From: Naegleria gruberi
Taxonomy: Eukaryota
DNA length: 64,000 nt
Strand: one strand, 5' to 3'
NCBI GenBank assembly: GCA_000004985.1
Contig: GG738894.1
Within the stretch, counting starts at the first letter, position 1. Each line of letters begins with the position of its first letter. Shown one piece after another: positions 17,527 to 57,061 of the stretch. A model generated the notes under the pieces. That model ran no database searches, was not told the origin of the DNA, and saw only the letters and a list, made by a program, of their open reading frames with translations. The translations under genes and the position numbers were made by a program.

Positions 17527-18660
17527 CTAATAGCTCTCTGATTTGTTGAACTTATTTGCTCCCCACAGTAGTGAATTCTCATGATTTAGTCCTTGATCAC
17601 CAATTCTATTGCCACGAATATTAAGTGATGTTAATTGTTTCATTTCACTTATATATTTGGCTCCTTCTACACCAATTCGATTGCCACGAATATTAAGTGA
17701 TGTTAATTGTTTCATTTCACTAATGAATTTGACTTTGCCACAAATATTAAGTGATGTTAATTGTTTCATTTCACTAATGAATTTAGCTCCTTCATCACCA
17801 GTTCTATTGTAAGAAATATTAAGTGATGTTAATTGTTTCATTTCACTAATGTATTTGACTCCTTCTATACCAATTTCATTTTCAGAAATATTAAGTGATG
17901 TTAATTGTTTCATTTCACTAATGAATTTAGCTCCTTCTATACCAATGAGAGTGTAATAAATATTAAGTGATGTCAATTGTTTCATTCCACTTATATATTT
18001 GGCTCCTTCATCGCCAATTATATTGTAAGAAATATCAAGTGATGTTAATTGTTTCATTTCACTTATATATTTGGCTCCTTCATCGCCAATTTCATTTTCA
18101 CGAATATTAAGTGATATTAATTGTTTCATTTCACTGATATATTTAGCTCCTTCATCACCAATTACATTGTAAGAAATATTAAGTGATGTTAATTGTTTCA
18201 TTTCACTGATATATTTGGCTCCTTCTACACCAATTCGATTGCCACGAATATTAAGTGATGTTAATTGTTTCATTTCAGTTACGAATTTGAGTTGTTCTAT
18301 GGCTTCCAGCAAATTTGTTGAAAATTTAACATCAACAATACTATTCATAAACTGACTTTTCATGAATAATTCAACTCGTTTCTCTGTAATGTTGTTTTTA
18401 AATTGAATAACAAGTTTTGAACGTTCCTTGATCACATTAAAGAATTGTTTTGAAATTAAAGTACAATTATTTAAAATAAACCACGAATCATCAATCATGC
18501 AAATTATTTCAAAACAAATATCATCTGAAAATATTTCTTGTTCGAGTTTCACATGCTTTTTTACTTTCTCTTCCATATTATTATTATTATTGTTAGTGAA
18601 TATTTCCTCCGAATTAATTAATTGATGATTTTCAAAATCTTGTCTGTTTCGTTTGCTCAT
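17527..18660 (-). CDS. Leucine-rich repeat protein (LRR_RI-type, 24-aa repeats GAKYISEMKQLTSLNISYNVIGDE)
   Basis: 377-aa ORF. About 10 tandem 72-nt repeats each encode one LRR. The N-terminus (DICFEIICMIDDSWFILNNCTLISKQFFNVIKERSKLVIQFK) is F-box-like. Paralog of 49469..50320. Confidence 0.8.
   Translation of the reverse strand: MSKRNRQDFENHQLINSEEIFTNNNNNNMEEKVKKHVKLEQEIFSDDICFEIICMIDDSWFILNNCTLISKQFFNVIKERSKLVIQFKNNITEKRVELFMKSQFMNSIVDVKFSTNLLEAIEQLKFVTEMKQLTSLNIRGNRIGVEGAKYISEMKQLTSLNISYNVIGDEGAKYISEMKQLISLNIRENEIGDEGAKYISEMKQLTSLDISYNIIGDEGAKYISGMKQLTSLNIYYTLIGIEGAKFISEMKQLTSLNISENEIGIEGVKYISEMKQLTSLNISYNRTGDEGAKFISEMKQLTSLNICGKVKFISEMKQLTSLNIRGNRIGVEGAKYISEMKQLTSLNIRGNRIGDQGLNHENSLLWGANKFNKSESY
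17590..18290. repeat. Tandem 72-bp coding repeats (LRR units) inside the LRR gene
   Basis: Recurring ...gttaattgtttcatttcact(a/g)at(a/g)(a/t)atttggctccttc... units are visible on the plus strand. This is protein-coding periodicity, not a CRISPR array. Confidence 0.7.
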
Positions 18661-18747
18661 TTTTTCTTGAGATTTAAATTCATGGGATTTACTTTGGTTA
18701 GAATTGTTGGCATTGTAATGTTAAATAACATTTTGAGAAAATGATAT

Positions 18748-28382: not shown

Positions 28383-31300
28383 ATGGTTATTATTCGAAAG
28401 GTTTACTTGTCTAAACCTTGGTGGTTATTTGTGCTACTGTTTAGCTGCATCGTTTTCACAATACACAACAACAACCTTGTTCATTCTAAATCGCCTTCTC
28501 TATACATTCCACAAGTTTCGGATACAAGCCAGACTAATAACATTCCATCTTCTCTATCATCAACAAGTTCCACCTCATCGGATAAATGTAAAACAACTAA
28601 TCCCTTCATATTTTCCCTTCCTACACCATTCTTTCACTGGGCAGAATCGGATTTCAATAACATTGGTTCGAAAGCTTTTTATGAAAATAATTGTTTACAA
28701 ATTGAACAAGTAAATAGATATAATGGATATATTCCATATGATCAAGTCAAGAAATCTCTCACCACCACTTCGACAACATCTAATATTGCAGAATTTTTAA
28801 TCATTGACGATTATTCACTTTTCAAATTGTGGAAAGACAATATTACAAACTTCAAGCTCATTTCACAATTTGCCAAATCAACGAATCTAATTCTAATGTC
28901 CAAGAAGGAAAAACAAATTACATCGATGAGAGATTTGAAAAATAAGAAGGTTGCTGTTTGTCAACATCATTTGGAATATTTGATTTATGAATTATATAAA
29001 CTAGGAATGAGTTTGAGTGATATTAAATATGAGATTGTAAATTATGACCTCATGTATATGAGGGTTTTATATGAAGATATTGATGCATACTTTGTGGATG
29101 ATCGATACATTTTCACACAAGTGAGAAAGACAACTACAACTCTTTATTATCCTAGAGAGTTTAATATTATTGAATCATCACTCAATTATACAAAGGATGG
29201 AATCAACATGTTCAGATATGGTATTATTGTGAAAGATAATCCAAGTGTTAGTGGGCTTGAAGAAATTACAAGAAGATTCTTACTGACACAAACTCAAATG
29301 TACACCTTTTGTAGAGATAATCCTTTGGAGTGTTTTGAAAGATGGGTCGTCTATGATTACATGATTGATAATTTGAACAATTTATTGTGGCCTTCTATTG
29401 ATGGTTTTGGAAATATTAGTAGAGTTTCAATTACAAATTCAATGTCTATATATTTGGGAAGAAATCCAACTTCAACAGAATCAAAAATATTTATCAACCA
29501 GTTTGTCAATTCAACCATAATGGATGAGATTATTTCGAATTGTACTGATAATTTGTGTACAGGCATAGATGGATCTGTATTGAATATTACAGGACTTGCC
29601 TATTCAGATGCAACTCCAACATTTTGTGAGGATTACATATTCCCATATCCACTCTCTTGTAAGAGATATTACTTGTACTTTAGATTGTACTGCTCATTTG
29701 TTCCATTCCTTATTGGTTCCCTAATTAATTTGATATTTGCTGTCATTGTTCCATTCATGAGAAGTGAACACTTGATGAAGCATCGTTTCATAGCCCCATT
29801 TGTAACACCAGTTTGCTTTTCAGGATTTTTACTCTTCTCTGCTATATTATTTTGCAGGTTTTCCTATTTTCCTGAGAATGTCATTTACGGTTTGGCAAGT
29901 GCCTGTATCGTTACAGTTATTATTACACGTTCCATGAATGTGATTCGTTACTTTTATGTGAGAAATATGTTCAAGCTCATGAAAAAGAGGAATAAGAATG
30001 AAAATAATGGATCAGCATACAATTTCTCAATGAAAGAAGATAAGGAAGTATTGGATAGGAATATTCGGTTTCACAGAGTTGCAGCATCCAAATTGGTCTT
30101 TGTTATTATTTGGATAGTACTGGTAGTACTTATTGCTCCGTCATTTTTCATAGCTCAATACTATGCTCCGGAGAATTATATTATAAGAAATGGAATTTCC
30201 ATTATTGTCTATGTATTGGCAACATTTTTCATGGTTTTCCTCTTTATTTTTGATTTGATTGTTAATAGAAAGAGATTGAAAAAGAGAGGTTTCATTTCCT
30301 TCATTCTATTCGACGATCCACTATTGTACAGATTGGAATTATTATTGTGTGGGTTTGAATTGATTTCAATTGTTTGGATTTCTCTCAGTGATTACTATGT
30401 CTATAACATTGCTGCCTTCTCTGCACAAGCTGTTGGTTTCCTTTCTTTGGGCCTTTCTGGTGCTGTAACATGGTCTTATGGATTTGCAGCAGCTGTCATT
30501 CTCTATAGACGTGGCAAGAAGTTTATCATGTCCAAAGTTTATAGAAGAAGAGCAATGAAAAGTAATTCAAACCTCTCTACAGAATTGAGTGGAAGTGCAA
30601 TCCAAGCTGATTTCTTGGAAAAGTTAATTGAAAATGATGATTTTTATTCTCTTCTTGAAGGTATGTTATAGATTGAATAGTTACGAATTTAATGCTTGTA
30701 TAGATTATGCTAAGAAGGAATTCTCATCGGAAAATCTCTTCCTTTACAATGTAAGTTTTCATTAACTCAATCCTCATTTACATGTTCAATCTTTTTGGCA
30801 ATAGATACTGAGACAATATAGAAAAAGGAGAGAACTCTACATTTCGGATTTACTGTTCATTTACAATAATTATGTAAAGAATTATTCACCATTTGAAGTG
30901 AACGTCTCCTCTGAAACTAAGAAGAGCGTTAGAGAAATTCTCTACACTTACCATATGATTGAGTCAGCAACTTCTAAAGACAGATTCTCTAAAAGAATCA
31001 CCCAATTTCCAACAGATATTTTCCCAAATTATGATTCATTCTCGGGAGCTACTCCTTATCAGGCCTTTGATGATGTTCATTCATCGCCAAAACTTGCAAG
31101 TAAGGCGACCATGCCACCTTCATTTCAGAATAACAACTCTCCAATGATGGGTCGATTTAAAGATAGTTTCAGAAAGCTATCATCTGTTTCAGATAGTGAA
31201 GCAAGTAGGGGGGATGATCTTGTTGGAGATGACGCAGATATAGGATCAGATCAAAGCAGAACTCCTAGAAGAAGTACTGTAAGTGGAGGGGGACCAGTTA

Positions 31301-31587: not shown

Positions 31588-31660
31588 CGCCCCACGTGGG
31601 GCTCGAACCCACGACCGTTGGATTAAAAGTCCAACGCTCTACCGACTGAGCTAGCAGGGC
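31588..31660 (-). tRNA. tRNA-Lys (anticodon UUU)
   Basis: The reverse complement GCCCTGCTAGCTCAGTCGGTAGAGCGTTGGACTTTTAATCCAACGGTCGTGGGTTCGAGCCCCACGTGGGGCG folds as a cloverleaf. The acceptor stem has 7 bp including 2 G-U pairs. D-loop AGTCGGTA, anticodon loop CTTTTAA, T-arm GTGGGTTCGAGCCCCAC, discriminator G, 73 nt. It closely matches eukaryotic tRNA-Lys-UUU. Confidence 0.9.
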
Positions 31661-39145: not shown

Positions 39146-42100
39146 TTACTCCATTTTCAAAAGTTGACAAAGTCTGTCCAAGTCTGGATGATTTTCCATA
39201 TATGCAACAGTATCTTTTTCAAAGAGAGCAAATAATTCATCATCAACTTCATCGAGTCCCTTATCTCCCAACCCAGGAACATTCAATCTAAAGTATTCAC
39301 ACAAACTCTTTCCTTCCTTAAAGAACTCGAGCTGAGCAGTAGCCATTTTGTGAATTCTATCACTGCTCAATTGTAAGTTTACCACTGAAAGTAGTGTGTT
39401 CAATGTTTGAGAAATACCCTTGAATGCCTTCATGATTGACTTTTTCCTTGGTTTAGTATTAGTTCCTTGTGGACTTAAATTTAAATTGACTTCTTCATCT
39501 CCATCTTCTTCACTATTTTTCCCTGATAATGCTCCTGTTCCCAAACTAACAAAAACAAACTTGTCATGATTAGGGAATATTTGCTTAGCCTCATACATTG
39601 CTAAAATATAATTTTAAAACACAACACTTCTAATTAATACTTACAAAGTTGAATTGGATTATTTGCAACAACTGCACCATCTATAAATTCAGAATCACCA
39701 ATTACTCTTGGCTTGAAGTACATTGGGGCAGCAGAAGTAGCTCTAATAACATCCATAGCTGTAATACCAGCACCTGTGCTAGTACCTCGGTAGAATGATG
39801 GCTGTTTCTTTGATGAGCTTGTTAAAGATGAAGACTCACTTTCCTCTGTGTAGTCATAAGGGTCGCTGTATGTTCTGAAAACAAAGGCTGTTGGCTCATC
39901 CAAGTTCATTTTAGGATTCGAAGATTTGTCCATTGTAGAGACAAGGAATGTAAAAGGTTTCTTTTTGTGAAGAGTATTCAAGTCAACATCTTGAGTAAGA
40001 TTCATTGAGGTCATCTCAAGATGATATCCATCATACCAACTTCTACCTCTGAGGACTTTCATTGTCTTGACAAGAGACTTGTTGTGGGTTGTCTTCAAGT
40101 CAAAAATATTTTTACCAATGTCAATATAATATTCTTTAGCAAGCTTCATTGGAACTCCTCCATTAATAAGCAATGCAACAATTCCACCAGTACTTGTTCC
40201 AGCAACAATGTCAAATATTTCACAAATCTTCTTACCAACTCTTTCTTCAATTACCTTTAAAATCTCAATCAAAATAAGACCCTTCATACCACCACCATCC
40301 ATAGAAAGTACCTTTACAGTTTTGCCTTTCTTTTCCTCTCTGTGTTTGGAAAAGTTGGTAATGATATTGTCATTATCATTTTTCCATATTGGAGATTCTT
40401 CGAGGCCAACTTGTTCATCTTCAATTTTAACGTTAAACAACTTTCTTCTTCTATGAATTCTCTCTTTCAGTAAATCTCTCAAATAGATTGGTTCGGCAAA
40501 GTGAATCTTTGTACCTTCTTTGTGGAAAAATTTACATTTTTGCTTTACAGGATCATACTTCTCTTGCAAATACTTTTCCAACCAAAACTTTCTATCCAAA
40601 GTTTTAAGAATCAAATAATCAAATTTGTATTCCTCCTTAAACTTTGGACACTGCTCAAGAAGAGAATTGATCAAGTTCAATAGGTAAGTGTGGTTCTTGA
40701 TCTCTTGTTTTTGGTGGAACTTTCTGTACTTTTTGAGAATTAATCTCTTTGGAACATAATAAATAAAATTGGTATCTCTATTTCTTTCTTCCTCTATTAA
40801 TAAATCCAAGTAGTCTTCTGGAGTGAAAGGTAAATTTTCTTTGCATGTTGGGGTTGCATCATCAAACTCGTCACCCTCCTTACCTTGTTCGTTTGGAGTA
40901 GCAGGAGATGGTGCTGAGTTTGATACCTTTGCGTGTTCTTTTTCTTCCTTTTCCTCTTTTTCTTTCTTCTTCTTTTCAATATCTCTATATTCTCTATAGT
41001 ATTTCACCAAGGTTTTTGGTAAAACATTCTTACTCTTGAGCTTTTTACCACTTAATTTTTCAATGACTCTTCTAGCAAAGGAAAACGAGTGGTAATTATA
41101 GTAGGAGTATTTCTGTTTGGTATTGTATTCATTGATAATTTGACATGTTGTGTCTAATACTTTGGAAAGTGGTTGTTCAGACAAGTTGAATTCAATTGTA
41201 GGACAGTCAGATAAATCAATCTTATCTGTCGAAAATTGATGGACCAGAGAATCTTCAAGCCAAACATAAATTCTATTAAAAATTTTAACTCCAAATTTGA
41301 TAAAATCTAAATCTCTAATCCATCGATCTGCCATTATTCTAATAGGTTCAAATTTGGTCATGTAGGTATCAATATCCATCATTATAAGTTCAACTTTAAC
41401 ACACTTGATATCAAATTCTGACCCAAAAACTCCAGCAGCATGAGTCAAGTTAAAGCTTTTCACTCTTCTGTGAGCTTTCTTCTTGAGTGGTGATTGCAAG
41501 CTAGGAGTCTTTTTATCTAGGGCGACAACACTACCAGATCTAAGTAAACGAGGAGATACTGGCGAAATTCCTTGGTTATCAAGTTCTTGGAAGGCATTTG
41601 AAGTCACAGGAATAGACCTTGGTGAAAATGCATTAGCTGCCACCAATGGTGAAACTGGAACAAATGGTGAAGCAGAGGGATCAATCATGAATCTAATGTC
41701 ACCATCCCTATTACTAGCCAAAATATCAGTATCTCTCTCAACAGTTGATGGTACACCTGAGGAAATATCGTCTGCTGAATCAAAACGGTTTGTGAGTGTA
41801 ATTTTCTTTGTTGGTGTTTTAAATCCTGGCTCATCAGCAGTGCTGCTGATGATAGAAGCATTCCACAATGTAGCACTATCACTCAATGCCCTACGATGAA
41901 CGTATTGTTCGGAATTATTCTCTGATGAACTTGTTGATGTTACTACTCTTTCCACTTTTCTATTATTTTCTGTACAATTTACTTGTTGGTTTTGAGGGAG
42001 TTCGAGCTGAATTTCATTTGAATCATCTTCCTTAATTGAATTATTTTGTGTATTATCATTATTAATAACGGTTACAGATGACGTTTTTGTCTCATCTTCC

Positions 42101-42150
42101 CCAACTGTCTTGCCTTGCTCCGTAGTACTATGTTGTTGTTGTTGATTCAC
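39146..42150 (-). CDS. Patatin-like phospholipase (PNPLA) with long N-terminal extension (2 exons)
   Basis: Exons (minus) 39645..42150 and 39146..39600, with a 44-nt intron (GTAAGT...TTTTAG on the minus strand). Patatin motifs: KVLSMDGGGMKGLILIEIL (GGGxK/RG), DIVAGTSTGGIVALL (GxSxG), DGAVVANNPIQL|S (catalytic Asp, split by the intron), FVFVSLGTG. Confidence 0.8.
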
Positions 42151-43922: not shown

Positions 43923-44097
43923 ATGAACCCGACGGGTTCGTCTTGATGATATTACGAATATTAAATAATAAATTCTTTCTTGTTGGGATTGCTTTGTTCA
44001 TTTCTTGTAACTCTGTGGACACAAATACTTGGCTTGAACACCCTATGCTGGAACCCCGGGTAGTATAGGGTACGGTGACTTAACCCGACGTAAGTAT
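43923..44097 (-). ncRNA. Candidate snRNA-like structured ncRNA (U1-like 5' end AUACUUAC, terminal GC hairpin)
   Basis: A GC-rich island sits in an AT-rich spacer. The minus-strand transcript would begin AUACUUACGUCGGG, complementary to the GUAAGU donors used by this window's introns. It has GGGU...ACCC and CCCUAU...AUAGGG stems, an A/U-rich single-stranded tract (GAAUUUAUUAUUUAAU), and a terminal hairpin GAACCCGUCGGGUUC at 43925-43939. The only ORFs here are two spurious ones. Confidence 0.3.
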
Positions 44098-44403
44098 TGC
44101 GGCAACACACTGTGGTCTCAGGGTCAACAGTGTAGTTACTGGGTGGTACGACATTTTTTTTGAGACGCTTTAAAATAAAAAATGAATAGAATGAGTCGGG
44201 CATATTTTCAAATGTGGAGGTGCGAAGGGTTGGGATGTCCTACTACTAATAATCATCAAGCTAGGACGGTGGTATCATCGTCGGGTGGTGAGAAGGATCA
44301 TGATTGGAGGCGCACCAATTCAATATTAAAATTATTTAATCTTTTTGATCGGAATAGTAGCAATAGTAGTGGTGGTTATAAATATTGTAAAAATAATTTT
44401 TCC

Positions 44404-45600
44404 ATGATGATGATAAGTTTTGGAGTGATGATCATGTTGTTAATGTCATTATTGAATAGTACGAGTTTTGTGAATGCTGCTGAAGTGCCATTATTATTGG
44501 GAAGTGGATCTTCACTTGTTGAAGAATTTCATAAAGAAGCAGCAAATTATTTTATTGGATACATGAGAAGAAGTGTCGATGTAATGTATGATGCCTCTGG
44601 ATCGGGGACTGGTGTGAAAAATTTATTTAATTCGAATGGAGTTTATTCATTTGCAGCAACTGATTATGGATTAAAGGCAGCTGACAGAAAAATTAATACA
44701 GATGCAAAAGTGTTGCCAATCATGACAACATATATTTCAATAATTGTATGTAGGATAGCGAAAGAAATTAATATTGAACATAATTAGAGTAATATTGAAG
44801 GATTGAAGGGTGGTTATTCAATTACCTTTTCCCAGGAGGCGCTTGTAGGAATATTTAATGGAACCATTTCCAGATGGAATGACCAAACATTGCAATTGTT
44901 GAATCCATCACTTGCACTCCCAAATACATCAATTTATGTGGTTGTTAGAAATGATTCAAGTGGCACTACTGACATGCTCACTACTGGATTATCATCATTT
45001 TCAAAGGAGTGGGCTTCAACATATGGATCGGGAACTTTAATCAAATGGTCATCCCTCTTATCGAACAGAATAATCTATGCAGAGGATGCCAAAGATGTTT
45101 CTTTCATCATTACTAGCACACCAAACACTATTGGGTACTCTACACCTACTACTTTTGAGCAGCATGCTCCAGCAACTATCAAAACAAAATTAGGAGCTTC
45201 TGTCACTCCCTCATCGAGCTATCTAAAAGGTGTAATAACAAGTGGAATATCATTTAATGAGAATTTTATGCATCCTTCTGTGGTTATAGATAGGCCAGAT
45301 ATTTACCCATTCGTTGGTGTTTCTTATATTGTCTATTTGTCATCCACAATGAATGATTGTGTAAAGGCTACTTATTTGGGCAAGCTTTTGGAATATTATA
45401 CTTCAGATAGAGCTACCAAGATTATTGAGGATGCCGCCTTTTCTTCACTCTTCATTGATGCATCTGTAAAGGAAAGATATATGGGATATTTGAAAAATTT
45501 CACATGTAATGGTAAACCTGTACTGAGTTCCAGTTCCATCACTCAATATTCGATAGCACTTTTAATTTTATTGATTATTCAATTATTATGTATTTTATAA
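44404..45600 (+). CDS. PstS-like phosphate-binding protein (bacterial periplasmic binding-protein fold), secreted with a GPI-anchor-like C-terminus (2 exons)
   Basis: Exons 44404..44745 and 44788..45600. The 42-nt intron GTATGT...AATTAG contains the in-frame TAG that splits the two track ORFs. Signal peptide MMMISFGVMIMLLMSLLNSTSFVNA. PstS family motifs GSGSSLVEEF, YDASGSGTGVKN and ALVGIFNGTISRWNDQTLQLLNPSLALPNTSIYVVVRNDSSGTTDMLTTGLSSFSKEWASTYGSGTLIKW correspond to LADIYLGKIKKWDD...NPGLKLP..I.VVRRADGSGT.F.FT.YL...W....G.G..V.W. C-terminal hydrophobic tail ALLILLIIQLLCIL. Confidence 0.75.
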
Positions 45601-45610
45601 GTTATATATT

Positions 45611-46623
45611 TTACAAAACCAAAGCAAATAATGCAACGATAACCATAATTAAGGAAACAAGATGCATACTCAATACATTTGCGCTATTAACTCTTGTATC
45701 GAAAGTGGTATATGTTTGTACATAATCCAAATAACTTGTAACATTTGTATAGATACCTCTATTTGAAACCGATCCTGCAGTTCCACATCCGTTAGGTCCA
45801 AAACTAACAATACCAAAAACAATATAATCATTTGTAGAATTAGGAGCTTTGTAAAATAATGGCCCTCCAGAATCACCTTGACAGCTAGTTATCATTAATT
45901 AATTATTGGAATTAATATTTTCAACTTAAATAATGAGGAATAAATACACCTACCTGTCATGTCCTTTTCCATCGCCAGCACAGATTTGTTTTGGTGATGA
46001 AGCATCCAAGTTAATAGCATTACATTTACTCATATCAACCACAGGTACAGTAACTTTCATCAAATCTGTTGGAAGTGGTTGAGTATCAACAGTTGTTCCC
46101 CATCCAGCAACAATAGATGAGAAACCAATAGGAATTGATCCAATTTCCAAATAGGCAGCCTTAGCTGTTTTACCGTCCAATGTCATTGCTGATTCCAATT
46201 CAAGAATAGCTATATCATTTACAACATTATTATTTGAATCACTATATTGAGGATGGACATGAATGTTCTTTATCTTAATATATTTACGTTGTACATCACT
46301 CACAGAATTTCCACCATATACAGCAATCCAAGGTAATGTATCAGGGGGACTGAAACAATGGGCAGCTGAGAGTAAATATTTGGAATTTATAATTGAAGCT
46401 CCACAAGTGTGACTGTAGCTTTTGGCGCTGATATCATCAGCCTGTTGGAGTGAGACAATGAATGGAAATTCGTTGGTGCTTGCCTTTTCACCATTGGACA
46501 CTTTAGAATCTCTCACTTTAAGTTGTTGAGCAGTTGATAATTTAGATATTAAGGCAACAATACTCAACAGAAGGAGGGCAAGAGTCCTCTTCCTTCCACT
46601 GTTACTACTTCCTCCGATCAACA
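45611..46623 (-). CDS. Trypsin-like serine protease (S1 family), secreted (2 exons)
   Basis: Exons (minus) 45954..46623 (first in-frame ATG of the ORF is 46759; the signal-peptide Met [32 protein letters not shown] is at ~46623) and 45611..45884. The 69-nt intron runs GTAGGT...CTAG on the minus strand. Catalytic triad present: [24 protein letters not shown], with CAGDGKGHD|SCQGDSGGP across the intron. Confidence 0.8.
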
Positions 46624-46793
46624 TTGTGTGAATTTTTATTGTTGTTGAAATAATTAAATTGGAAGTGTGAAGGACAAAACCAATCCAAAGATTACTGTGG
46701 AAGAGGAAATAGAGCGTTCTTTTAGGAGATAATTTGATCATTCTTTTATTATATTTCACAACTATATTGAAGGAACATCATGTGATGACCCAC

Positions 46794-49100
46794 TTAAAAG
46801 TCATATAATTCATTTTCCTTTTGAAGTTCTGTGAGTTTGAGCCACTTTTTGTACTCTGCTGTTTCCTCAAGTCTAGAAAAGGTATCAGATACATTCTTAA
46901 TGACTTCAAAGATGAGGATTTCTCTCAATTCAGAGTAAGGGATTGAGTTTGCAGTTGGTGTTTGCTCACAAACTTGTTTCTTCTCTTCAAACCATTTGTA
47001 AAATGCCTTTTTAGTAGAGTTTGGAAAATTGACCTCAAACTTGGAATAATTTCTCATATAGAGCTCTTCAATTTGGGCAGCCTGTTCGAAAGTTAAGAAT
47101 GAATCTGCAGAATTGACGAGGGAACTTGAACTAAATGTTCGTGAGGTTCTTGAATTGGATGTAGGCAATGAGTCAGTAGATGCTCCCATACTTGATTTCG
47201 ATCTATCATTACCTGAAGATGGGCTTTTCTTATTCTCCAATGATATTAACATTTCATATAACATTACATTTTCAATTGAAAATTCCTTCTTTGCAAACTT
47301 TCTCAATAATTTCATCAAATTCACATCTTCCAATCTGGATTCCAATGTTCTCTTTCCTTTTGGTTCATTGCCTCTGTTTGAAGAAAGTAATTTACTTATT
47401 TTTCTATAAATTTCAATAATCATTGCACTTCCACCAAGAATTAAATAACAAGTCAATGAAAATAGAACTGTCAATACTCCAATGGCAAATTGATTATTAT
47501 ACACTAACAGGGTGATAATTGTGAGTACGAGGAGTAAAAATATGAGTAACAAGTCTATCTTGATATAGAACGGATCATCAAAGAAAAAGTAGTAGTATAT
47601 TCCTTTCTTTTTGATCTTTCTTCGATTTCCAATCATATCCAATAGCAAGAATATTAAACCAATTACAATACATAGAATAATGACAGCACCAAGAGGTGCA
47701 TTTCTGAAATATCCCAAATAGGAAGTAAGGTAAACTTCTTTTTCTAGTATCATGAGAACCGAAGCTCCAAGAGGAATAAAAGGTACTGTTACACTTGTAA
47801 CTAATCCTAACCACTTCTTTCCCAAAAACTTGAAAAATTTGAAATGATCAGATTTTGAAATTATTGTAAACAAATTTCTCAGATAGAAATATCTCACAAC
47901 TGTTATAAAATACAGGAATACAGGATACATTACAACTGCATTGGCTATTCCATTATACAATCGAGTGCAATTGGCAGTAAATACCATAATCTGGAAAATG
48001 TTTCGCATAATAACAAAGAGTGGGCAAAGGTATGGAACAGCCAATCTAATTTTGATGGATTTAGTATTAAATGTCAATAACAGACCAATATAGTAGATAC
48101 ATAGAAAAAAAATTGCATAAACACCTTGGATTTCTTCATATTTAACAGGTTCAAAGGCACAGGTGGAGGATGAACATTCATATACTTCACTGTTCATGTA
48201 AGAAAGGGTGATATTGGAGATTCCAATACTTGAAATTGTTTCGTTTGTATACAATGTGATTTGAGGGTAACTGCTTTGAAGATATTTCACAAAATTATTA
48301 AATTCGAAACTAGAATTTGATAGAGAAATTTTTGATGACCTAAACAGACAATAATCGTGATTCAAATAACATGAAGTACGGTAAGAATCCCCTTTCACTT
48401 CTTCTCTGCACAATCTAATTAATGAATCACATGTTGTAGTGAAGTTGTTAAAATAATCAGTGACACATGAGATTTGGTTTTGATCTAGACTGTTGGAATA
48501 TGAAAAGAACAATGGTGCCAATCTCACAACATTTAAATCTTCAACCTGTAGGTATCTACCTAGCTTGTTATTTCCTCTAATCAACCTCAAAACCTTTGGC
48601 ATTTCTCTGTCAGTTGTTATGATAATTGGACCTTCATTTGATGACCAATAATCAACAAGAATACTTCCAAACACGCAATCAGAGTTGATTCTAACAGCTG
48701 AAAGAATGGAAATAGGTTTGATATCAGCATATGCAGAAGTTGAAATATTATAAATTTCTAATAATGTGTTAAAGGAACTTTCTAATATTTTCAATCGTTG
48801 GTCGGAAACTGAGTAAAAATCAGAATTTGGAGTAAATAGAATGATTCTCTTGTTTTCAAATAGTGATCTTGGTGTAGTAGTTGAATAACCTTTAAGAGCT
48901 ATTGCAATAATAGTTTCATTGGACGAAACTATCTGAATTGGTTGTTGACCATAAATTTCCTTCAATTGACCAATACTCGCTGTCTTTAACCCACAACTAC
49001 AAATCACACAGTGTAGTTGAACTAAACACAACACCAATGAAATCGTAAAGCTGATGTGCATGTTTTTTTGACTTTTCGTTTGGCAAATCTCACATGTCAC
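46794..49100 (-). CDS. Solute-binding-protein-like ectodomain + multi-TM + C-terminal RGS domain receptor (paralog of 28383..31449)
   Basis: 768-aa single-exon ORF. Signal peptide (MHISFTISLVLCLVQLHCVIC), SBP-like ectodomain, a block of ~7 hydrophobic helices, then an RGS domain (FAKKEFSIENVMLYEML...NYSKFEVNFPNSTKKAFYKWF...IFEVIKNVSDTFSRLEETAEYKKWL). Confidence 0.75.
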   Translation of the reverse strand: MTCEICQTKSQKNMHISFTISLVLCLVQLHCVICSCGLKTASIGQLKEIYGQQPIQIVSSNETIIAIALKGYSTTTPRSLFENKRIILFTPNSDFYSVSDQRLKILESSFNTLLEIYNISTSAYADIKPISILSAVRINSDCVFGSILVDYWSSNEGPIIITTDREMPKVLRLIRGNNKLGRYLQVEDLNVVRLAPLFFSYSNSLDQNQISCVTDYFNNFTTTCDSLIRLCREEVKGDSYRTSCYLNHDYCLFRSSKISLSNSSFEFNNFVKYLQSSYPQITLYTNETISSIGISNITLSYMNSEVYECSSSTCAFEPVKYEEIQGVYAIFFLCIYYIGLLLTFNTKSIKIRLAVPYLCPLFVIMRNIFQIMVFTANCTRLYNGIANAVVMYPVFLYFITVVRYFYLRNLFTIISKSDHFKFFKFLGKKWLGLVTSVTVPFIPLGASVLMILEKEVYLTSYLGYFRNAPLGAVIILCIVIGLIFLLLDMIGNRRKIKKKGIYYYFFFDDPFYIKIDLLLIFLLLVLTIITLLVYNNQFAIGVLTVLFSLTCYLILGGSAMIIEIYRKISKLLSSNRGNEPKGKRTLESRLEDVNLMKLLRKFAKKEFSIENVMLYEMLISLENKKSPSSGNDRSKSSMGASTDSLPTSNSRTSRTFSSSSLVNSADSFLTFEQAAQIEELYMRNYSKFEVNFPNSTKKAFYKWFEEKKQVCEQTPTANSIPYSELREILIFEVIKNVSDTFSRLEETAEYKKWLKLTELQKENELYDF

Positions 49101-49426: not shown

Positions 49427-49468
49427 AAAGTCGGAAGAAAAAGAGTAAAAAACACTAATTTAAAAAAA

Positions 49469-50320
49469 ATGAGTAAACTTAACAGACAAGATTTTGAAAA
49501 TCATCAATTCATTAATTCGGAGGAAATATTCACTAACAATAATAATAATAATAATATAGAAGAGAAAGTAAAAAAGCATGTAAAACTCGAACAAGAAATA
49601 TTTTCAGATGATATTTGTTTTGAAATAATTTCAATGATTGATGATTCGTGGTTTATTTTAAATAATTGTACTTTAATTTCAAAACAATTCTTTAATGTGA
49701 TCAAGGAACGTTCAAAACTTGTTATTCAATTTAAAAAAAAATTTACAGAGAAACGAGTTGAAATATTAAAGAAAAGTCAATTTATGAATAGTATTGTTAA
49801 TCTTAAATTTTCAACAAATTTGTTTGACTATTTTGAAGAAGCAAAATTTATAAGTGAAATGAAAGAATTAACATCGCTTAATATTAATGGCAATGTAATT
49901 GGTGCAGAAGGAGCAAAATTCATCAGTGGAATGAAACAATTGACATCACTTAATATTTCTTACAATGTAATTGGTGATAAAGGAGCTAAATTGATAAGTG
50001 AAATGAAACAGTTAATATCAATTAATATTTCTTACAATAGAATTTGTGGTGAAGGAGCTAAATTCATAAGTGAAATGAAACAATTGACATCACTTAATAT
50101 TGCTAACAATTCAATTGGCGATACAGGAGCTAAATTCATCAGTGGAATGAAAGAATTAACATCACTTGATATATATAATAATAGAATTGGCAGAGAAGGA
50201 GCAAAATACATTAGTGAAATGAAACAATTGACATCACTTGATATTGGTGGCAATCAAATTGGTGATGAAGAAGTAAAATTGATAAGTGAAATGAAACAAT
50301 TGACATCACTAAGAAAATAA
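49469..50320 (+). CDS. Leucine-rich repeat protein, paralog of 17527..18660
   Basis: 283-aa ORF. The first ~120 codons are ~90% identical in nucleotide sequence to the 5' end of the minus-strand LRR gene (MSKLNRQDFENHQFINSEEIFTNNNNNN...DICFEIISMIDDSWFILNNCTLISKQFFNVIKERSKLVIQFK). The same 24-aa LRR units follow (GAKFISEMKQLTSLNI...). Confidence 0.75.
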   Translation: MSKLNRQDFENHQFINSEEIFTNNNNNNNIEEKVKKHVKLEQEIFSDDICFEIISMIDDSWFILNNCTLISKQFFNVIKERSKLVIQFKKKFTEKRVEILKKSQFMNSIVNLKFSTNLFDYFEEAKFISEMKELTSLNINGNVIGAEGAKFISGMKQLTSLNISYNVIGDKGAKLISEMKQLISINISYNRICGEGAKFISEMKQLTSLNIANNSIGDTGAKFISGMKELTSLDIYNNRIGREGAKYISEMKQLTSLDIGGNQIGDEEVKLISEMKQLTSLRK

Positions 50321-50371
50321 GCTATTGAAAGATTGGAGAAAAAGGTAATTTATTACTAAATGTTAAAACTC

Positions 50372-52936
50372 TTATTGTTTAGGCATTGTATCACAGTAAT
50401 CTGTGTAGAGTGGGATATCTTCCTTAAGACCCTTTCTCTTTCTGATAGATTTGATGAGTTTGTGAACTTTAGATTGAGGATCATAAACATTGTCTTCCAT
50501 AACTTTCCAGTGACTGAAACTACATTGAGGGAAAGCTTGTCCTTGAGTAACACCTCTCAACTCTTCTGTTAAACCGAAACTTTCCAACACAGGTAAATTA
50601 CCAGTTATACTAACGAGAGGAGTACCAATTACCATTTCAGTAGATTTGATAACACCTCTTCTATTAGAAATGACACTATAGACAGAACCCATCACTGATT
50701 GAGGACATTGAACTTCAACAAGATACATTGGTTCAACTAACTTTGGATCAGCTCTCAATTGACTAGCAGTCATGACACGAGATGTTGCTTGGAGAATTTG
50801 ACCAGCTCCACGATGGATAGAATCTGCATGAAGATTACAATCATTAAATTTGAATAAAACACCTCTCATTGCTTCGTCACATAAACCTCCTGAAGAACTG
50901 CTTTGTTGGAAGCTAGTGACCACATATTGTTGAATTTCATTAATATAGTCAACTGACTTGGTTGCATTTACCAAAATGTTACTACCCTTATCAGCTTCAG
51001 GTCCAAAACTCCAAATTCTCTTTGTTATACTAGGATCCCATTCAAAGTCAATTTCTAAAATCTTTGCTCTCTTATTTTGATCATCCATTGGCAATTGACC
51101 TTCCTTAATCATTTCAATTAATTCCTCACTGATTGGTTCAGCTTGCATGTATAAACGATTGTGGCCGTTAGCACTTCTTGCCATGACCATGTCACCATTC
51201 TTATTTGAAACTGTTTCGTGGAAAGTGACAACAGGAGGAGACTTTTTAATTTGAATTCCTCTTGCATATTCTTCTTCTAAATTCTTTAAACAAATTTCCA
51301 AATGCAATTCACCTGCTGTTCCAAGAATATGTTGACCACTATCATTTTGCTTACATTCCAATAGAGGATCACTTTGAACGAGACGTTTCAAACCTTCAAC
51401 AAATCGAGATAAATCAGCTGGATTGACTGGCTCAACTCCCATTTGAACTACAGGACTCACAGAGTATTTCATATTCTTAATTGGCATACATGCAACTTGT
51501 CCTTCTTCTGTCAATGTACATGATTTGATAATGTACTTGTCAAGACCAACAATACCGACGATGGCACCACAAGAAGCTTGAGTGATACTTTCAGTGTTTT
51601 TACCAACCATGACTAACAATCTTTGAATGCTTGTATGGAAAACATCTTTCTTAGCAATTGGATCATAGTTAGGACCCAAAATTCTCACCTTAGTTGATTG
51701 AGTCAAACTACCAGAGAATATACGAGCTAGAGCAATAAAACGACCAACATTATTACTCATACTAGAGCTAGTATTAGAGTGCATAGGTACCATCTTACTG
51801 ACATAGACAACCAGTGGTGCATTTGGATCACATTCCTTAATACCAGTAGCGTATGGATCTGTCAAATCTTCACCAGTGTAGAGGTTATCATACCTGACCT
51901 TTTGAGCCTCTTTAGGAGAAGGTAAATGGTTGATAATCATTTGAACTAGAGGTTTGTGAGCTGGGAGGAACTTTCTCATGATTGATTTAGCTAAAAGTTT
52001 CGGCTCCTTTCTCTTTTCTTCTTTCGTCAGAGGTATAGACAATGCACCAATGATATTTTCCAAATCTGTTGACAAAATACCTTCACTCGAAATTGTATGT
52101 TCTCTAACCAACTTGAAAATCTTGAAAATAGGTTCTAAAATGAATTCACAGAAAGTATGTTTCAATTGTTGACCACTTGTCGATGAATAAGGTTCAGTGG
52201 TAAACTTCTTAGTTGAGTGATCATAATAATTTTCACCCCACAATTTGTTAATAACCTTCTCAACTGGAAGTTTAAACTTCTTGCTATATAATTGAGCGAA
52301 TTGCTCCAAAGTGAAAGCCCAACCCATCTTACCTGATCCAAAAGCAATGTTACAATCAACTGGATCAACAGAAACTGACTCATCAGAGTAAGTTGATAAT
52401 AGAGCATTCACAGACTCGATAATTCTTAAAAAGTTTTGATAACTTTCTTCTTCAGTAAATTGCATTTCTTCAATCAAACGGTCAACCTTGTTAATGAAGA
52501 GAACTGGACGAATTCTTTCTTGAAGAGATTGTCTAATTACTGTTTCAGTTTGACCTCTACAACCTTCAGCAGCATCAACAATCAGCACTGCACCATCAGT
52601 AATTCTCAAAGCTGTACTAACTTCAGATGAGAAATCAATGTGACCTGGACAATCGATCAAATTAACCAAATGATGATCATTCTCCTTGTCTGGATTTTCC
52701 AATACCATACTCAAACTTGTTGATTTAATGGTAATACCCTTTTCAATTTCATTCTTATCTACGTCACAAACTCTCTTCTCACCTGCAGCATCTTCATCCA
52801 CTAAACCAGCTGCTAAAGCCAATTGATCAGTGAGTGTTGATTTACCATGATCAACGTGAGCAATTATACTAATGTTACGAATCTTGTTACTGTCGAGTAA
52901 GAGCCTTTCGAGTATTTCTTTACTGAACTTGACCAT
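50372..52936 (-). CDS. Translation elongation factor 2 (eEF2)
   Basis: 854-aa intronless ORF. G-domain motifs AHVDHGKSTL, DCPGHIDFSSEV, NKVDR. INKVDRLIEEMQFTEEESYQNFLRIIESVNALLSTY matches EF2 [22 protein letters not shown].... The diphthamide-region histidine is present (SIHRGAGQIL), and the C-terminus reads GQAFPQCSFSHWKVM...RKRKGLKEDIP. Confidence 0.9.
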   Translation of the reverse strand: MVKFSKEILERLLLDSNKIRNISIIAHVDHGKSTLTDQLALAAGLVDEDAAGEKRVCDVDKNEIEKGITIKSTSLSMVLENPDKENDHHLVNLIDCPGHIDFSSEVSTALRITDGAVLIVDAAEGCRGQTETVIRQSLQERIRPVLFINKVDRLIEEMQFTEEESYQNFLRIIESVNALLSTYSDESVSVDPVDCNIAFGSGKMGWAFTLEQFAQLYSKKFKLPVEKVINKLWGENYYDHSTKKFTTEPYSSTSGQQLKHTFCEFILEPIFKIFKLVREHTISSEGILSTDLENIIGALSIPLTKEEKRKEPKLLAKSIMRKFLPAHKPLVQMIINHLPSPKEAQKVRYDNLYTGEDLTDPYATGIKECDPNAPLVVYVSKMVPMHSNTSSSMSNNVGRFIALARIFSGSLTQSTKVRILGPNYDPIAKKDVFHTSIQRLLVMVGKNTESITQASCGAIVGIVGLDKYIIKSCTLTEEGQVACMPIKNMKYSVSPVVQMGVEPVNPADLSRFVEGLKRLVQSDPLLECKQNDSGQHILGTAGELHLEICLKNLEEEYARGIQIKKSPPVVTFHETVSNKNGDMVMARSANGHNRLYMQAEPISEELIEMIKEGQLPMDDQNKRAKILEIDFEWDPSITKRIWSFGPEADKGSNILVNATKSVDYINEIQQYVVTSFQQSSSSGGLCDEAMRGVLFKFNDCNLHADSIHRGAGQILQATSRVMTASQLRADPKLVEPMYLVEVQCPQSVMGSVYSVISNRRGVIKSTEMVIGTPLVSITGNLPVLESFGLTEELRGVTQGQAFPQCSFSHWKVMEDNVYDPQSKVHKLIKSIRKRKGLKEDIPLYTDYCDTMPKQ

Positions 52937-56784: not shown

Positions 56785-57061
56785 CACGAGCCATCAGCCA
56801 AAATTGTTTAATAAATTAAAAAGACTACAGCACCACAGGTTTCCAAGTTGTCTCCAACCTCAGTACTGATGTGGCTCGACGATGCTTAACTTCTCAAATC
56901 GGACAGGATGAGGTGCATTCATCGTGATATGGCCGTAGCCATTCATTTCCTTAATACAATGAATATAAAGAATATTTAACTAATTGGATCAGAAATTTAT
57001 TCATTTTACATATTAACTCGGGCTATATTGTTGAATCTCTTGTTTCACTCTTTAGAAATAA

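Follow-up and report, generated by a model that had tools for sequence, protein, structure and literature searches.

In the 64,000-nucleotide stretch of Naegleria gruberi contig GG738894.1 analysed here (the window), the segment from 44404 to 45600 appears to be a native gene of two exons that belongs to a eukaryotic family of membrane proteins with a PstS-type ectodomain. We put the probability of this reading, which covers gene identity, structure and family placement, at about 0.72. Judged by sequence comparison, the protein is a tail-less member of a widespread eukaryotic PstS-ectodomain family and not a lone bacterial import. The gene, intron included, is already known under near enough the name first proposed for it. 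The public protein P0001 (458 aa; 'periplasmic phosphate binding protein-like protein [Naegleria gruberi]') shows 100% identity over 100% of the spliced product, and the junction ...TTYISII/SNIEGLKGG... is the same in both, so P0001 uses the exact 44746..44787 splice and gene and intron are both in the public annotation. The features of the locus, with the evidence for each in brackets, are as follows.

44182..44403, + strand: 74-codon N-terminal extension in the public model (coding score, homologue N-termini)
44404..44745, + strand: exon 1, aa 1-114 (sequence, translation, public model)
44404..44481, + strand: predicted signal peptide, aa 1-25/26, MMMISFGVMIMLLMSLLNSTSFVNA/A (read from sequence, AlphaFold pLDDT)
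44482..45525, + strand: PstS-type ectodomain, aa 27-360, interrupted by the intron (PF12849, TIGR00975, PDB PstS matches, AlphaFold2, Foldseek)
44746..44787, + strand: spliceosomal intron, phase 0 (GTATGT...TTAG, profile splice test, public model)
44788..45600, + strand: exon 2, aa 115-384 and TAA stop at 45598-45600 (sequence, translation, public model)
45526..45597, + strand: C-terminal tail, aa 361-384, a GPI-type signal or short membrane anchor (sequence, homologue alignment)

Two open reading frames on the + strand, 44182..44787 and 44803..45600, lie in one common frame, and the in-frame TAG (44785-44787) is made up of the final three bases of a 42-nt, phase 0 intron (44746..44787, GTATGTAGGATAGCGAAAGAAATTAATATTGAACATAATTAG) with GTATGT...TTAG boundaries. 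Joining 44404..44745 to 44788..45600 gives a product of 384 aa with no internal stops. As in a spliceosomal intron, the ends are GT..AG, and excision recovers both the frame and collinearity with PstS homologues; solved PstS structures align by sequence across the splice junction without a gap (E 6e-21 to 1e-20). Ten GT..AG options around the stop that preserve the frame and leave no stop were scored against profiles from which the N. gruberi protein was excluded. The splice at 44746..44787 ranked top with 229.6 bits against the bacterial and 282.1 bits against the eukaryotic profile, the runner-up reaching 214.6 and 261.8 bits, respectively. The preliminary description of this DNA had proposed that the two frames are fused by removing a TAG-bearing GTATGT...AG intron, and the 384-aa product, the profiles and the public model all bear this out. 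By each sequence test applied, the 42-nt intron is genuine. Its junction falls within a predicted beta-strand (E112-116) of a confident AlphaFold2 model, and its position is absent from the homologues of N. fowleri, N. lovaniensis and Willaertia. Both exons are intact, with coding scores of +0.29 and +0.25 bits/codon. Short introns are usual here: the adjacent trypsin-like gene has one of 69 nt, those of the Willaertia homologue measure 45 and 48 nt, and a minimum intron length of 30 bp was set for read mapping in N. fowleri (PMC8296547). Birth of the intron by tandem duplication of the flanking exon was considered and rejected, as the 10-nt repeat TAATATTGAA common to the intron and exon 2 is equalled in 191 of 2000 shuffles and is not significant.

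The public model starts at the ATG at 44182, 74 codons ahead of 44404. This extension has a coding score of -0.12 bits/codon, and the hydrophobic signal of homologues is located in their first 35 or so residues. On the strength of the negative score and the homologue N-termini, translation more plausibly begins at 44404 than at the annotated ATG, 44182..44403 is probably 5' UTR and not coding, and we suggest that the start-codon annotation be corrected from 44182 to 44404. The extension overlaps a GC-rich patch (GC 0.44) at 44000-44300, which sits in the probable 5' UTR. A non-coding RNA within the patch was also considered and rejected, since Rfam was blank even at E <= 1 and folding was not in excess on either strand (z +0.9 and +1.1).

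The 384-aa product matches Pfam PF12849 (PBP_like_2) over residues 31-322, scoring 79.2 bits versus a cut-off of 27 (E 5.5e-22), and the Pfam scan returned no domain besides it. Scores for TIGR00975 (140.3 bits versus 205) and NF008171 (81.7 bits versus 339) lie below the equivalog cut-offs and, as that of TIGR00975 is missed, the match does not establish the protein as a strict functional equivalent of bacterial PstS. An AlphaFold2 model of the protein (mean pLDDT 87.1, pTM 0.84) predicts a type II binding-protein fold with two lobes that superposes on solved PstS. The top Foldseek matches are Yersinia and E. coli PstS (rmsd 2.5 A), and the 2Z22, 1IXH-type and 9K3X chains give target TM-scores of 0.89-0.90 and rmsd of 2.5-2.7 A. 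The earlier suggestion that this eukaryotic genome encodes a PstS-fold protein is thus upheld by PF12849, by the matches to solved PstS and by the AlphaFold2 and Foldseek results. In E. coli PstS, the residues that coordinate phosphate, which we take to be T10, F11 (backbone), S38, D56, R135, D137, S139, G140 and T141, define nine positions to which S37, L38 (backbone), S67, D87, R168, D170, S172, G173 and T174 align. Going by this alignment, the set of phosphate-ligand residues is complete in the N. gruberi protein. Bacterial PstS (TIGR00975/PF12849; E. coli 1IXH, Yersinia 2Z22) shares with it the fold and the nine phosphate-site positions, and an export signal implies an extracytoplasmic location for both. 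Bacterial PstS has a lipoprotein/Sec signal whereas the N. gruberi protein has a predicted eukaryotic signal peptide instead, together with an extra, putative C-terminal membrane tether and a spliceosomal intron, and it is only about 21-31% identical to PstS sequences from bacteria and to the solved structures.

Relatives were revealed by an exhaustive HMMER search, word-indexed homology searches having missed most of the eukaryotic ones. Among single-domain matches, the highest-ranking are membrane proteins of eukaryotes that carry a PstS ectodomain, and they come from Heterolobosea, Euglenida, Jakobida, Ancyromonadida, CRuMs, Ichthyosporea, Fungi, Chloroplastida and lophotrochozoan animals, a spread that does not support the initial view of PstS as rare in eukaryotes. 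In Willaertia (KAL9656567.1), Andalucia (ANDGO_00956) and Entosiphon the PstS domain is followed by a TM segment and an adenylyl/guanylyl cyclase, and in the abalone Haliotis (XP_071091629.1) and the nemertean Tubulanus (XP_074655677.1) by a TM segment, a kinase-homology domain (KHD) and a guanylyl cyclase. The fungus Calcarisporiella (XP_069254172.1) combines PBP_like_2 with a 7tm_3 class C GPCR. This last arrangement has been noted in fungi (Spizellomyces SPPG_06488; PMC3251606) and in Plasmodiophora (PMC4815078), and it alone among the family architectures was found in our literature search, which returned no paper on the Naegleria PstS-like gene. The N. gruberi protein resembles these receptors in its predicted signal peptide, its Cys305/Cys354 pair and a hydrophobic segment that comes after a C-x-G motif at the corresponding position. 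The receptors carry a cyclase, kinase-homology or 7TM module, whereas the N. gruberi protein has none and, having no cytoplasmic module, would be unable to transduce a signal alone.

Scored against a profile of the eukaryotic clade, the protein reached 280-284 bits, and against the bacterial profile 226-231 bits, a difference of 49-56 bits in favour of the former. In held-out controls this difference averaged +39 for eukaryote-type and -57 for bacterial sequences, and N. gruberi resembles the eukaryote-type group; for metagenomic sequences the labels eukaryote and bacterium are heuristic (TM after the domain, no lipobox). Cys305 and Cys354 occur in 48 and 46, respectively, of 63 eukaryote-type sequences. 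By neighbour-joining (NJ), the sister of the N. gruberi protein was eukaryote-type in 90/100 bootstraps, and the nearest clade of at least five contained a heterolobosean-type sequence in 72/100. The exact sister is unstable, being the second domain of a Tetraselmis protein in 47/100 replicates, probably through long-branch attraction, and pairwise distances show saturation, with identity standing at about 30% to every sequence, those of N. fowleri and N. lovaniensis included. Among bacteria, the nearest sampled sequences are lipoprotein PstS of Anaerolineales (Chloroflexota). By HMMER, the profiles and neighbour-joining, the closest relatives are eukaryotic, not bacterial. The preliminary description had argued for an ancient bacterial acquisition. 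The family is likely to be bacterial in ultimate origin, but the origin would lie far deeper than Naegleria, and a transfer at the level of Naegleria is disfavoured by the eukaryotic profile and the NJ sister.

Two proteins annotated as 'PBP domain-containing protein', N. fowleri FDP41_010842 (P0290) and N. lovaniensis C9374_010256 (P0134), likewise consist of a PstS ectodomain plus a membrane tether only. N. fowleri P0290 ends in a full TM helix and a 13-residue cytoplasmic tail, unlike the GPI-type end in N. gruberi, and the N. lovaniensis model has a short hydrophobic stretch at its end. Three introns are common to the N. fowleri and N. lovaniensis genes and none of these is found in N. gruberi, while the N. 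gruberi intron is missing from both. Their loci are mutually syntenic, with the N. fowleri genes in the order Vps52 - Zip - RTC - x - PBP - Peptidase_M1 - BTB - SNF2, but not clearly syntenic with the 64-kb window. The sole link is a weak domain match at E 1e-6 (34% over 62 aa) between the upstream neighbour at these loci and the opposite-strand, patatin-like gene of the window (39634-42150), which is insufficient for orthology. No full-length PstS receptor that might act as a partner, and no PstS-cyclase paralogue, was found in N. gruberi by word-indexed, non-exhaustive homology searches.

DING proteins have a phosphate-binding fold of the PstS superfamily and are reported from eukaryotic tissues without an ABC partner. 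A DING identity was rejected here, the N. gruberi sequence not being DING-type and its predicted structure being closer to canonical PstS (TM-score 0.89) than to PfluDING (2Q9T/4F1U; TM-score 0.62-0.64, rmsd 4.5-4.8 A). Schistosoma SmGBP (PMC3206071) is also a receptor-family ligand-binding ectodomain without a signalling or 7TM part, but it belongs to the type I, mGluR-like class and to an unrelated lineage, and the parallel is by analogy only.

The N-terminus, MMMISFGVMIMLLMSLLNSTSFVNA/AE, reads as a signal-like segment with a hydrophobic core followed by V-N-A at -3/-1, and AlphaFold pLDDT drops to about 50 over it, as expected of a cleaved leader. At the other end, SSSSITQYS-IALLILLIIQLLCIL, the 15-residue hydrophobic run IALLILLIIQLLCIL closes the protein at residue 384, with the stop at 45598-45600. 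Both the eukaryotic signal peptide and the hydrophobic C-terminal tail of the preliminary description are therefore present on inspection of the sequence. The gene cannot extend further downstream, since the convergent trypsin-like gene terminates at 45611; the secreted trypsin-like protease which that gene encodes has a similar hydrophobic C-terminal ending. Classical GPI signals consist of an omega site of small residues, a spacer and a hydrophobic tail. By inspection the tail is laid out as S361-S364 (candidate omega site), the spacer ITQYS and I370-L384, and being short and protein-terminal it is consistent with a GPI signal. Evidence of GPI-anchored proteins in the genus has been mentioned (PMC9928731). 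In alignments the tail coincides with the TM helices of Willaertia, N. fowleri and P0136. The TM helices of homologues span about 23-27 residues and are followed by KKRK or RNLKLKR; in N. gruberi this basic cytoplasmic flank is absent. Given this alignment, the tail more likely derives from the TM segment of a receptor, shortened and possibly co-opted as a GPI signal, than from new sequence joined to a gene of bacterial type, which disfavours the idea that a GPI tail was newly fitted to such a gene.

Several other explanations of the locus were weighed. If the TAG at 44785-44787 were a true stop and the 42 nt were kept, the locus would be a pseudogene or split gene producing a truncated N-terminal fragment or nothing. 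An intron of 42 nt is far below the N. gruberi mean of 203 bp (PMC8296547) and is a multiple of three, and an environmental fragment (P0127; 54-65% identity, depending on the alignment) is without about 27 residues near the splice position. We nevertheless regard such decay as very improbable, because the two exons are intact with positive coding scores, every ligand residue and both conserved cysteines are preserved past the stop, and the stop sits exactly within a GTATGT...AG segment whose excision gives gap-free collinearity with PstS and which the public gene model splices out. Intron retention also gives in-frame stops in all homologous heterolobosean genes, so that this is the normal state. 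The notion of bacterial contamination or mis-assembly within a eukaryotic scaffold draws on the prokaryote-typical family name alone and is refuted by the spliceosomal intron, by N. gruberi codon usage and by the location on a 499,907-bp N. gruberi contig, where the eukaryotic genes on either side, at distances of 10 nt and about 1.2 kb, contain introns. Codon usage had been said to match the neighbours and to speak against contamination, and with an RSCU correlation of r = 0.91 with neighbouring genes and a GC3 of 0.28 it does.

It is also unlikely that a bacterial pstS was transferred into the Naegleria lineage and separately gained a eukaryotic signal peptide, an intron and a GPI signal. 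Prokaryotic members do dominate the family overwhelmingly, with 4571 representatives at E <= 0.001 that are mainly single-domain and of bacterial length, and the domain end ...FTCNGKPVL is close to that of bacterial lipoprotein PstS, which terminates in ...MTCNGTPVL (P0004) or ...VTCNGQPVLP (P0291), although the TCNG motif is found in euglenid and Willaertia receptors as well. That the protein is only some 30% identical to those of N. fowleri and N. lovaniensis, with 0/3 intron positions in common and no clear synteny, would fit a separate origin, but the eukaryotic profile is ahead by 49-56 bits as it is for held-out eukaryote-type sequences, the NJ sister is eukaryote-type in 90/100 bootstraps, the cysteine pair and the position of the hydrophobic tail agree with the receptor family, and codon usage is fully native. 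Less improbable, though still not favoured, is that the tail is a true short TM anchor and the product a type-I membrane protein without a cytoplasmic tail, a truncated receptor; this would alter the anchoring step only and is otherwise compatible with the preferred reading. The alignment of the segment to the TM helices of Willaertia, N. fowleri and P0136, the helical modelling of residues 363-383 by AlphaFold, and the clear TM helix and short cytoplasmic tail, with no GPI signal, in N. fowleri all point this way. Against it, the hydrophobic run amounts to no more than about 15-17 residues and has a Gln at its middle, no basic stop-transfer flank follows, the run terminates the protein, and the SSSS and a spacer of about six residues ahead of the tail make up the classical GPI layout.

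In the family-member reading that we prefer, a native nuclear gene of two exons, with one lineage-specific 42-nt phase 0 intron, would be translated most likely from 44404. Its product would enter the secretory pathway by means of a signal peptide and would comprise a complete PstS-type phosphate-binding domain, which a short hydrophobic C-terminus would tether outside the cell at the plasma membrane, most likely by GPI at the SSSS and otherwise as a short membrane anchor. The family would be old and widely but patchily spread, with the PstS domain binding the ligand on the outside of type-I receptors (receptor cyclases, receptor guanylyl cyclases and class C GPCRs) and the Naegleria proteins representing an 'ectodomain plus anchor only' form. 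We infer that, at the cell surface and without an ABC importer, the protein may bind orthophosphate or a closely related oxyanion, and that it could serve as sensor or co-receptor for phosphate, act as a decoy to signalling receptors or capture phosphate at the surface; the chances of a specific role in surface phosphate sensing or capture seem about even.

Eukaryotic sensing of extracellular phosphate is poorly understood. Family PstS domains on the outside of cyclase, guanylyl-cyclase and GPCR modules have mostly intact phosphate-ligand residues, and their presence outside signalling modules in many eukaryotic lineages makes them testable candidate phosphate receptors. More speculatively, and with little probability attached, tail-less Naegleria PstS could be eukaryotic SBP partners and the PstS-ectodomain receptors direct eukaryotic phosphate sensors. 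The GPI- or TM-anchored protein could then capture extracellular orthophosphate and pass Pi or an occupancy signal to a separate membrane protein, for example a receptor cyclase, a GPCR or a secondary phosphate transporter, much as in bacterial SBP-dependent signalling and uptake, and the sensor function could span Discoba, fungi, ichthyosporeans, green algae, molluscs and nemerteans. The tail-less Naegleria forms are small soluble-domain versions that should be easy to express and to assay for ligand specificity. As regards the window, the outcome is largely a matter of tidying up, in that membership of a eukaryotic receptor-ectodomain family replaces the story of a lone bacterial import; the gene is an ordinary annotated one, and the family is interesting and little studied.

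The genes flanking the PstS-like gene are ordinary eukaryotic ones (EF2, actin, kinases, patatin and trypsin). The window has 26 ORFs that reach 220 aa, and a domain scan of these, with the trypsin-like and PstS-like genes taken as spliced products and the other 24 as listed, returned no ABC permease or ATPase (ABC_tran, BPD_transp), and the absence of ABC partners noted at the outset is confirmed within the window. For the neighbour at 46794-49100, the idea of an RGS domain found no confirmation, Pfam being blank even at E 0.05. Large inverted repeats at 17590-18665 and 49464-50410 were considered as the ends of a mobile element that might have brought in the PstS-like gene and rejected as element termini, for they are coding arrays of 72-nt (24-aa) leucine-rich repeats (LRR) in two paralogous LRR genes of opposite orientation.

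The PstS-like gene of N. gruberi consists of two open reading frames in the same frame, which are joined by the removal of a short intron:

44182..44787, plus strand, open reading frame 1 of the PstS-like gene, in the same frame as reading frame 2
44803..45600, plus strand, open reading frame 2, in the same frame as reading frame 1
44746..44787, plus strand, intron of 42 nt (GTATGTAGGATAGCGAAAGAAATTAATATTGAACATAATTAG), its last three bases forming the in-frame TAG

Splicing 44404..44745 to 44788..45600 yields a 384-amino acid product with no internal stops, and the coordinates, frame and intron in the preliminary description were all correct. A protein search found this product at 100% identity over 100% of its length in P0001, a public N. 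gruberi protein of 458 amino acids named periplasmic phosphate binding protein-like protein, from a source contig of 499,907 bp. The junction (...TTYISII/SNIEGLKGG...) is identical in P0001, and the sole difference is that P0001 begins at an upstream ATG at 44182. The window is thus from N. gruberi, and the gene and its 42-nt intron are already in the public annotation. The coding score of the 74-codon extension (44182..44403) is negative, at -0.12 bits/codon, whereas the exons score +0.29 and +0.25, and in homologues the hydrophobic leader lies in the first 35 or so residues. The start assumed previously, 44404, is therefore more plausible than the annotated one. A local GC peak at 44000-44300 (0.44 versus 0.29 window-wide) lies just upstream of this likely start codon. 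It had no Rfam match and no RNA folding excess, and its coding score is negative in the frame of the gene; the public gene model treats it as coding.

Four sequence tests were used to judge whether the intron is real: structure alignment, splice ranking, an AlphaFold2 model and the intron habits of the lineage. Solved PstS structures align over the splice junction without gaps. Of ten GT..AG pairs whose excision takes out the stop and preserves the frame, 44746..44787 scored highest against PstS profiles made without the N. gruberi protein (229.6 bits bacterial, 282.1 bits eukaryotic), the runner-up reaching 214.6 and 261.8 bits, respectively. In the AlphaFold2 model of the spliced product (pLDDT 87.1, pTM 0.84), junction residues 114/115 fall within strand E112-116, and a 14-codon insert left in this strand would disrupt the core sheet regardless of the stop. 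Short introns with GTAAGT, GTATGT or GTAGGT donors are normal in this lineage; those of the Willaertia homologue measure 45 and 48 nt, that of the neighbouring trypsin-like gene (45885-45953, GTAGGT...CTAG) is 69 nt long, and N. fowleri reads were mapped with the minimum intron length set at 30 bp (PMC8296547). A stop-bearing intron of 3n length is unremarkable, since retention gives an in-frame stop in all related heterolobosean genes too. The intron is lineage-specific, as its position is absent from the N. fowleri, N. lovaniensis and Willaertia homologues. A suspected duplication origin of the intron was not significant.

The product matches Pfam PF12849 far over threshold, and the bacterial PstS equivalog models match below cut-off (TIGR00975, 140 versus 205 bits). 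The top Foldseek matches were canonical PstS proteins of Yersinia, E. coli and Burkholderia (target TM-score 0.88-0.90, rmsd 2.5-2.7 Å), whereas DING proteins reached a TM-score of only about 0.63. When aligned to E. coli PstS, in which phosphate is coordinated by T10, F11 (backbone), S38, D56, R135, D137, S139, G140 and T141, all phosphate-coordinating positions are kept (S37, L38, S67, D87, R168, D170, S172, G173 and T174). Together, the family match, the PstS fold and the retained ligand positions argue strongly that the protein would bind orthophosphate or a close oxyanion.

A word-indexed search returned prokaryote-type matches only, at about 30% identity, which alone would suit the bacterial acquisition, adapted to secretion and GPI anchoring, that was proposed at the outset. 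An exhaustive HMMER search of 1.84 billion representatives, followed by look-ups and Pfam scans, gave eukaryotic proteins as the top matches.

Domain architectures of the eukaryotic matches (TM, transmembrane segment)
Willaertia magna (Heterolobosea): PstS + TM + class III cyclase; best single-domain match, 128.7 bits
Andalucia godoyi (Jakobida), Entosiphon (Euglenida): PstS + TM + cyclase
Rhabdomonas (Euglenida): two PstS domains + TM
Chromosphaera (Ichthyosporea): four PstS domains
Rigifila (CRuMs), Fabomonas (Ancyromonadida), Tetraselmis (Chloroplastida): PstS domain(s) in long multi-TM proteins
Calcarisporiella (Fungi): PstS + 7tm_3 class C GPCR
Haliotis (Mollusca), Tubulanus (Nemertea): PstS + TM + kinase-homology + guanylyl cyclase
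Naegleria fowleri (P0290), N. lovaniensis (P0134) (Heterolobosea): PstS ectodomain + hydrophobic C-terminal segment only

The abalone and nemertean fusions carry the annotations 'atrial natriuretic peptide receptor 2-like' and 'retinal guanylyl cyclase 2-like'. In a neighbour-joining tree of 152 domains, the N. gruberi protein fell into a small group with those of Willaertia, N. fowleri and N. lovaniensis and with similar metagenomic proteins, euglenids came next, and all lay inside a clade of about 65 that held nearly all receptor-type sequences. Bootstrap support is moderate: the sister was eukaryote-type in 90 of 100 replicates, its exact identity being unstable, and a heterolobosean-type sequence was present in the nearest clade of at least five in 72 of 100. 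Independently of the tree, the protein scored 49-56 bits higher on the eukaryote-type profile (held-out controls: eukaryote-type mean +39, bacterial mean -57), and it carries the Cys305/Cys354 pair that typifies the eukaryotic clade. Among the bacterial sequences sampled, lipoprotein PstS of Anaerolineales/Chloroflexota (P0291) lie nearest. The observation behind the preliminary description was confirmed and its interpretation only partly supported: the family's ultimate origin is likely bacterial, but by the HMMER search, the tree and the profile test the nearest relatives are eukaryotic. The acquisition reading is better replaced by one in which the gene belongs to an old eukaryotic family of receptors with PstS ectodomains and is a tail-less member of it.

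The receptor fusions P0132, P0169, P0157, P0135, P0144 and P0143 (all outside the window) keep most of the phosphate-ligand residues, which makes the PstS-cyclase, PstS-guanylyl-cyclase and PstS-7tm_3 fusions candidate extracellular phosphate receptors. This family context is a more interesting lead than the locus itself. The PBP_like_2 + 7tm_3 architecture was noted earlier in fungi (PMC3251606) and Plasmodiophora (PMC4815078), and our literature search found no paper on the Naegleria PstS-like gene or on PstS-cyclases.

The C-terminal tail of the N. gruberi protein aligns at the position of the homologues' TM helix, directly after a conserved C-x-G motif. In the homologues a helix of about 23-27 residues is followed by basic residues (N. 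fowleri ...YIGINSYVKKRKALGEPISEE; Willaertia ...YLYYRNLKLKR), and P0290 has a full TM and a short cytoplasmic tail. The N. gruberi tail, unlike these, consists of SSSS, a spacer of 5-6 residues and 15 hydrophobic residues at which the protein ends. Small residues, a short spacer and a terminal hydrophobic stretch are the classical layout of a GPI signal. Judged from this layout, the protein is probably GPI-anchored (probability about 0.6), in preference to a short TM anchor, which its alignment position would suit and which we consider possible but rather unlikely. A further 3' exon would not fit between the stop codon (45598-45600) and the end of the convergent trypsin-like gene at 45611.

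The protein has a complete PstS domain, a predicted secretory-pathway signal and a predicted C-terminal tether, and it lacks a signalling module. No ABC partner was found among the 26 window ORFs of at least 220 amino acids, in line with the preliminary description. It would presumably sit on the cell surface and bind phosphate there. Because its relatives are receptor ectodomains, the likeliest roles would be phosphate sensing in which a second membrane protein takes part, action as a buffer or decoy, or capture of phosphate at the surface for uptake by secondary transporters.

The codon usage of the gene is indistinguishable from that of its neighbours (GC 0.349, GC3 0.279, RSCU correlation 0.91; other window genes 0.68-0.94), which together with the intron and the flanking eukaryotic genes excludes contamination, in agreement with the earlier view. 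The other window genes include EF2, actin, protein kinases, an LRR gene pair and patatin-like, trypsin-like and receptor cyclase genes, with RNA genes dispersed among the protein-coding ones:

31588-31660, minus strand, tRNA-Lys(UUU)
56822-56940, minus strand, 5S rRNA, 96.9 bits
34668..39125, plus strand, receptor-type cyclase of 1485 amino acids (Peripla_BP_6/ANF_receptor ectodomain, a second domain of type 'Peripla_BP_A-cyclase', TM, Guanylate_cyc)
28383-30671, plus strand, 762-amino acid ORF, weak NMT1/THI5-like (SsuA-type binding protein) match, E 1.1e-4
45611-46624, minus strand, convergent trypsin-family serine protease, Pfam Trypsin 149 bits
60545-61318, second trypsin-like ORF
17590-18665 and 49464-50410, inverted 72-nt tandem-repeat arrays, arms up to 773 nt, 87% complementary, 31 kb apart

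The receptor cyclase gene, which precedes the PstS-like gene by about 5 kb, shows that N. gruberi builds receptors with binding domains of bacterial type. NMT1-cyclase and Bmp-cyclase fusions were found among the relatives of the Willaertia protein, and for this reason the 762-amino acid ORF may be another binding-protein-type receptor. The convergent protease, whose gene ends 10 nt from the PstS stop, has a signal peptide and a hydrophobic C-terminal end of the same GPI-like type as the PstS-like protein. The 72-nt arrays were rejected as mobile-element ends, being coding repeats (24-amino acid LRR_6 units) of paralogous LRR genes at 17527-18660 (minus strand) and 49469-50320 (plus strand).

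Synteny links the genes of N. fowleri and N. lovaniensis, which also have three intron positions in common. The N. gruberi gene has none of the three, is only 30% identical to them and lies in a different neighbourhood, in which a single nearby gene gave a weak domain match; it is either a fast-evolving orthologue or a paralogue. The N. lovaniensis model (locus L001, 10001-11628) stops after a short hydrophobic stretch (...APILLAILVD*), whereas the syntenic N. fowleri protein (locus L002, 10001-11928) continues into a complete TM helix with a KKRK tail behind it; the gene model may be wrong at the 3' end in N. lovaniensis. P0127, a 133-amino acid fragment from soil metagenome SRR3989338, is 54-65% identical to the N. 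gruberi protein depending on the alignment (65% in the exhaustive search, 54-62% in the others), which suggests that closer relatives are present in uncultured heteroloboseans. It is without about 27 residues that span the intron-flanking strand; possible reasons are a deletion, read-through of introns arranged differently, or an artefact of assembly at the protein level.
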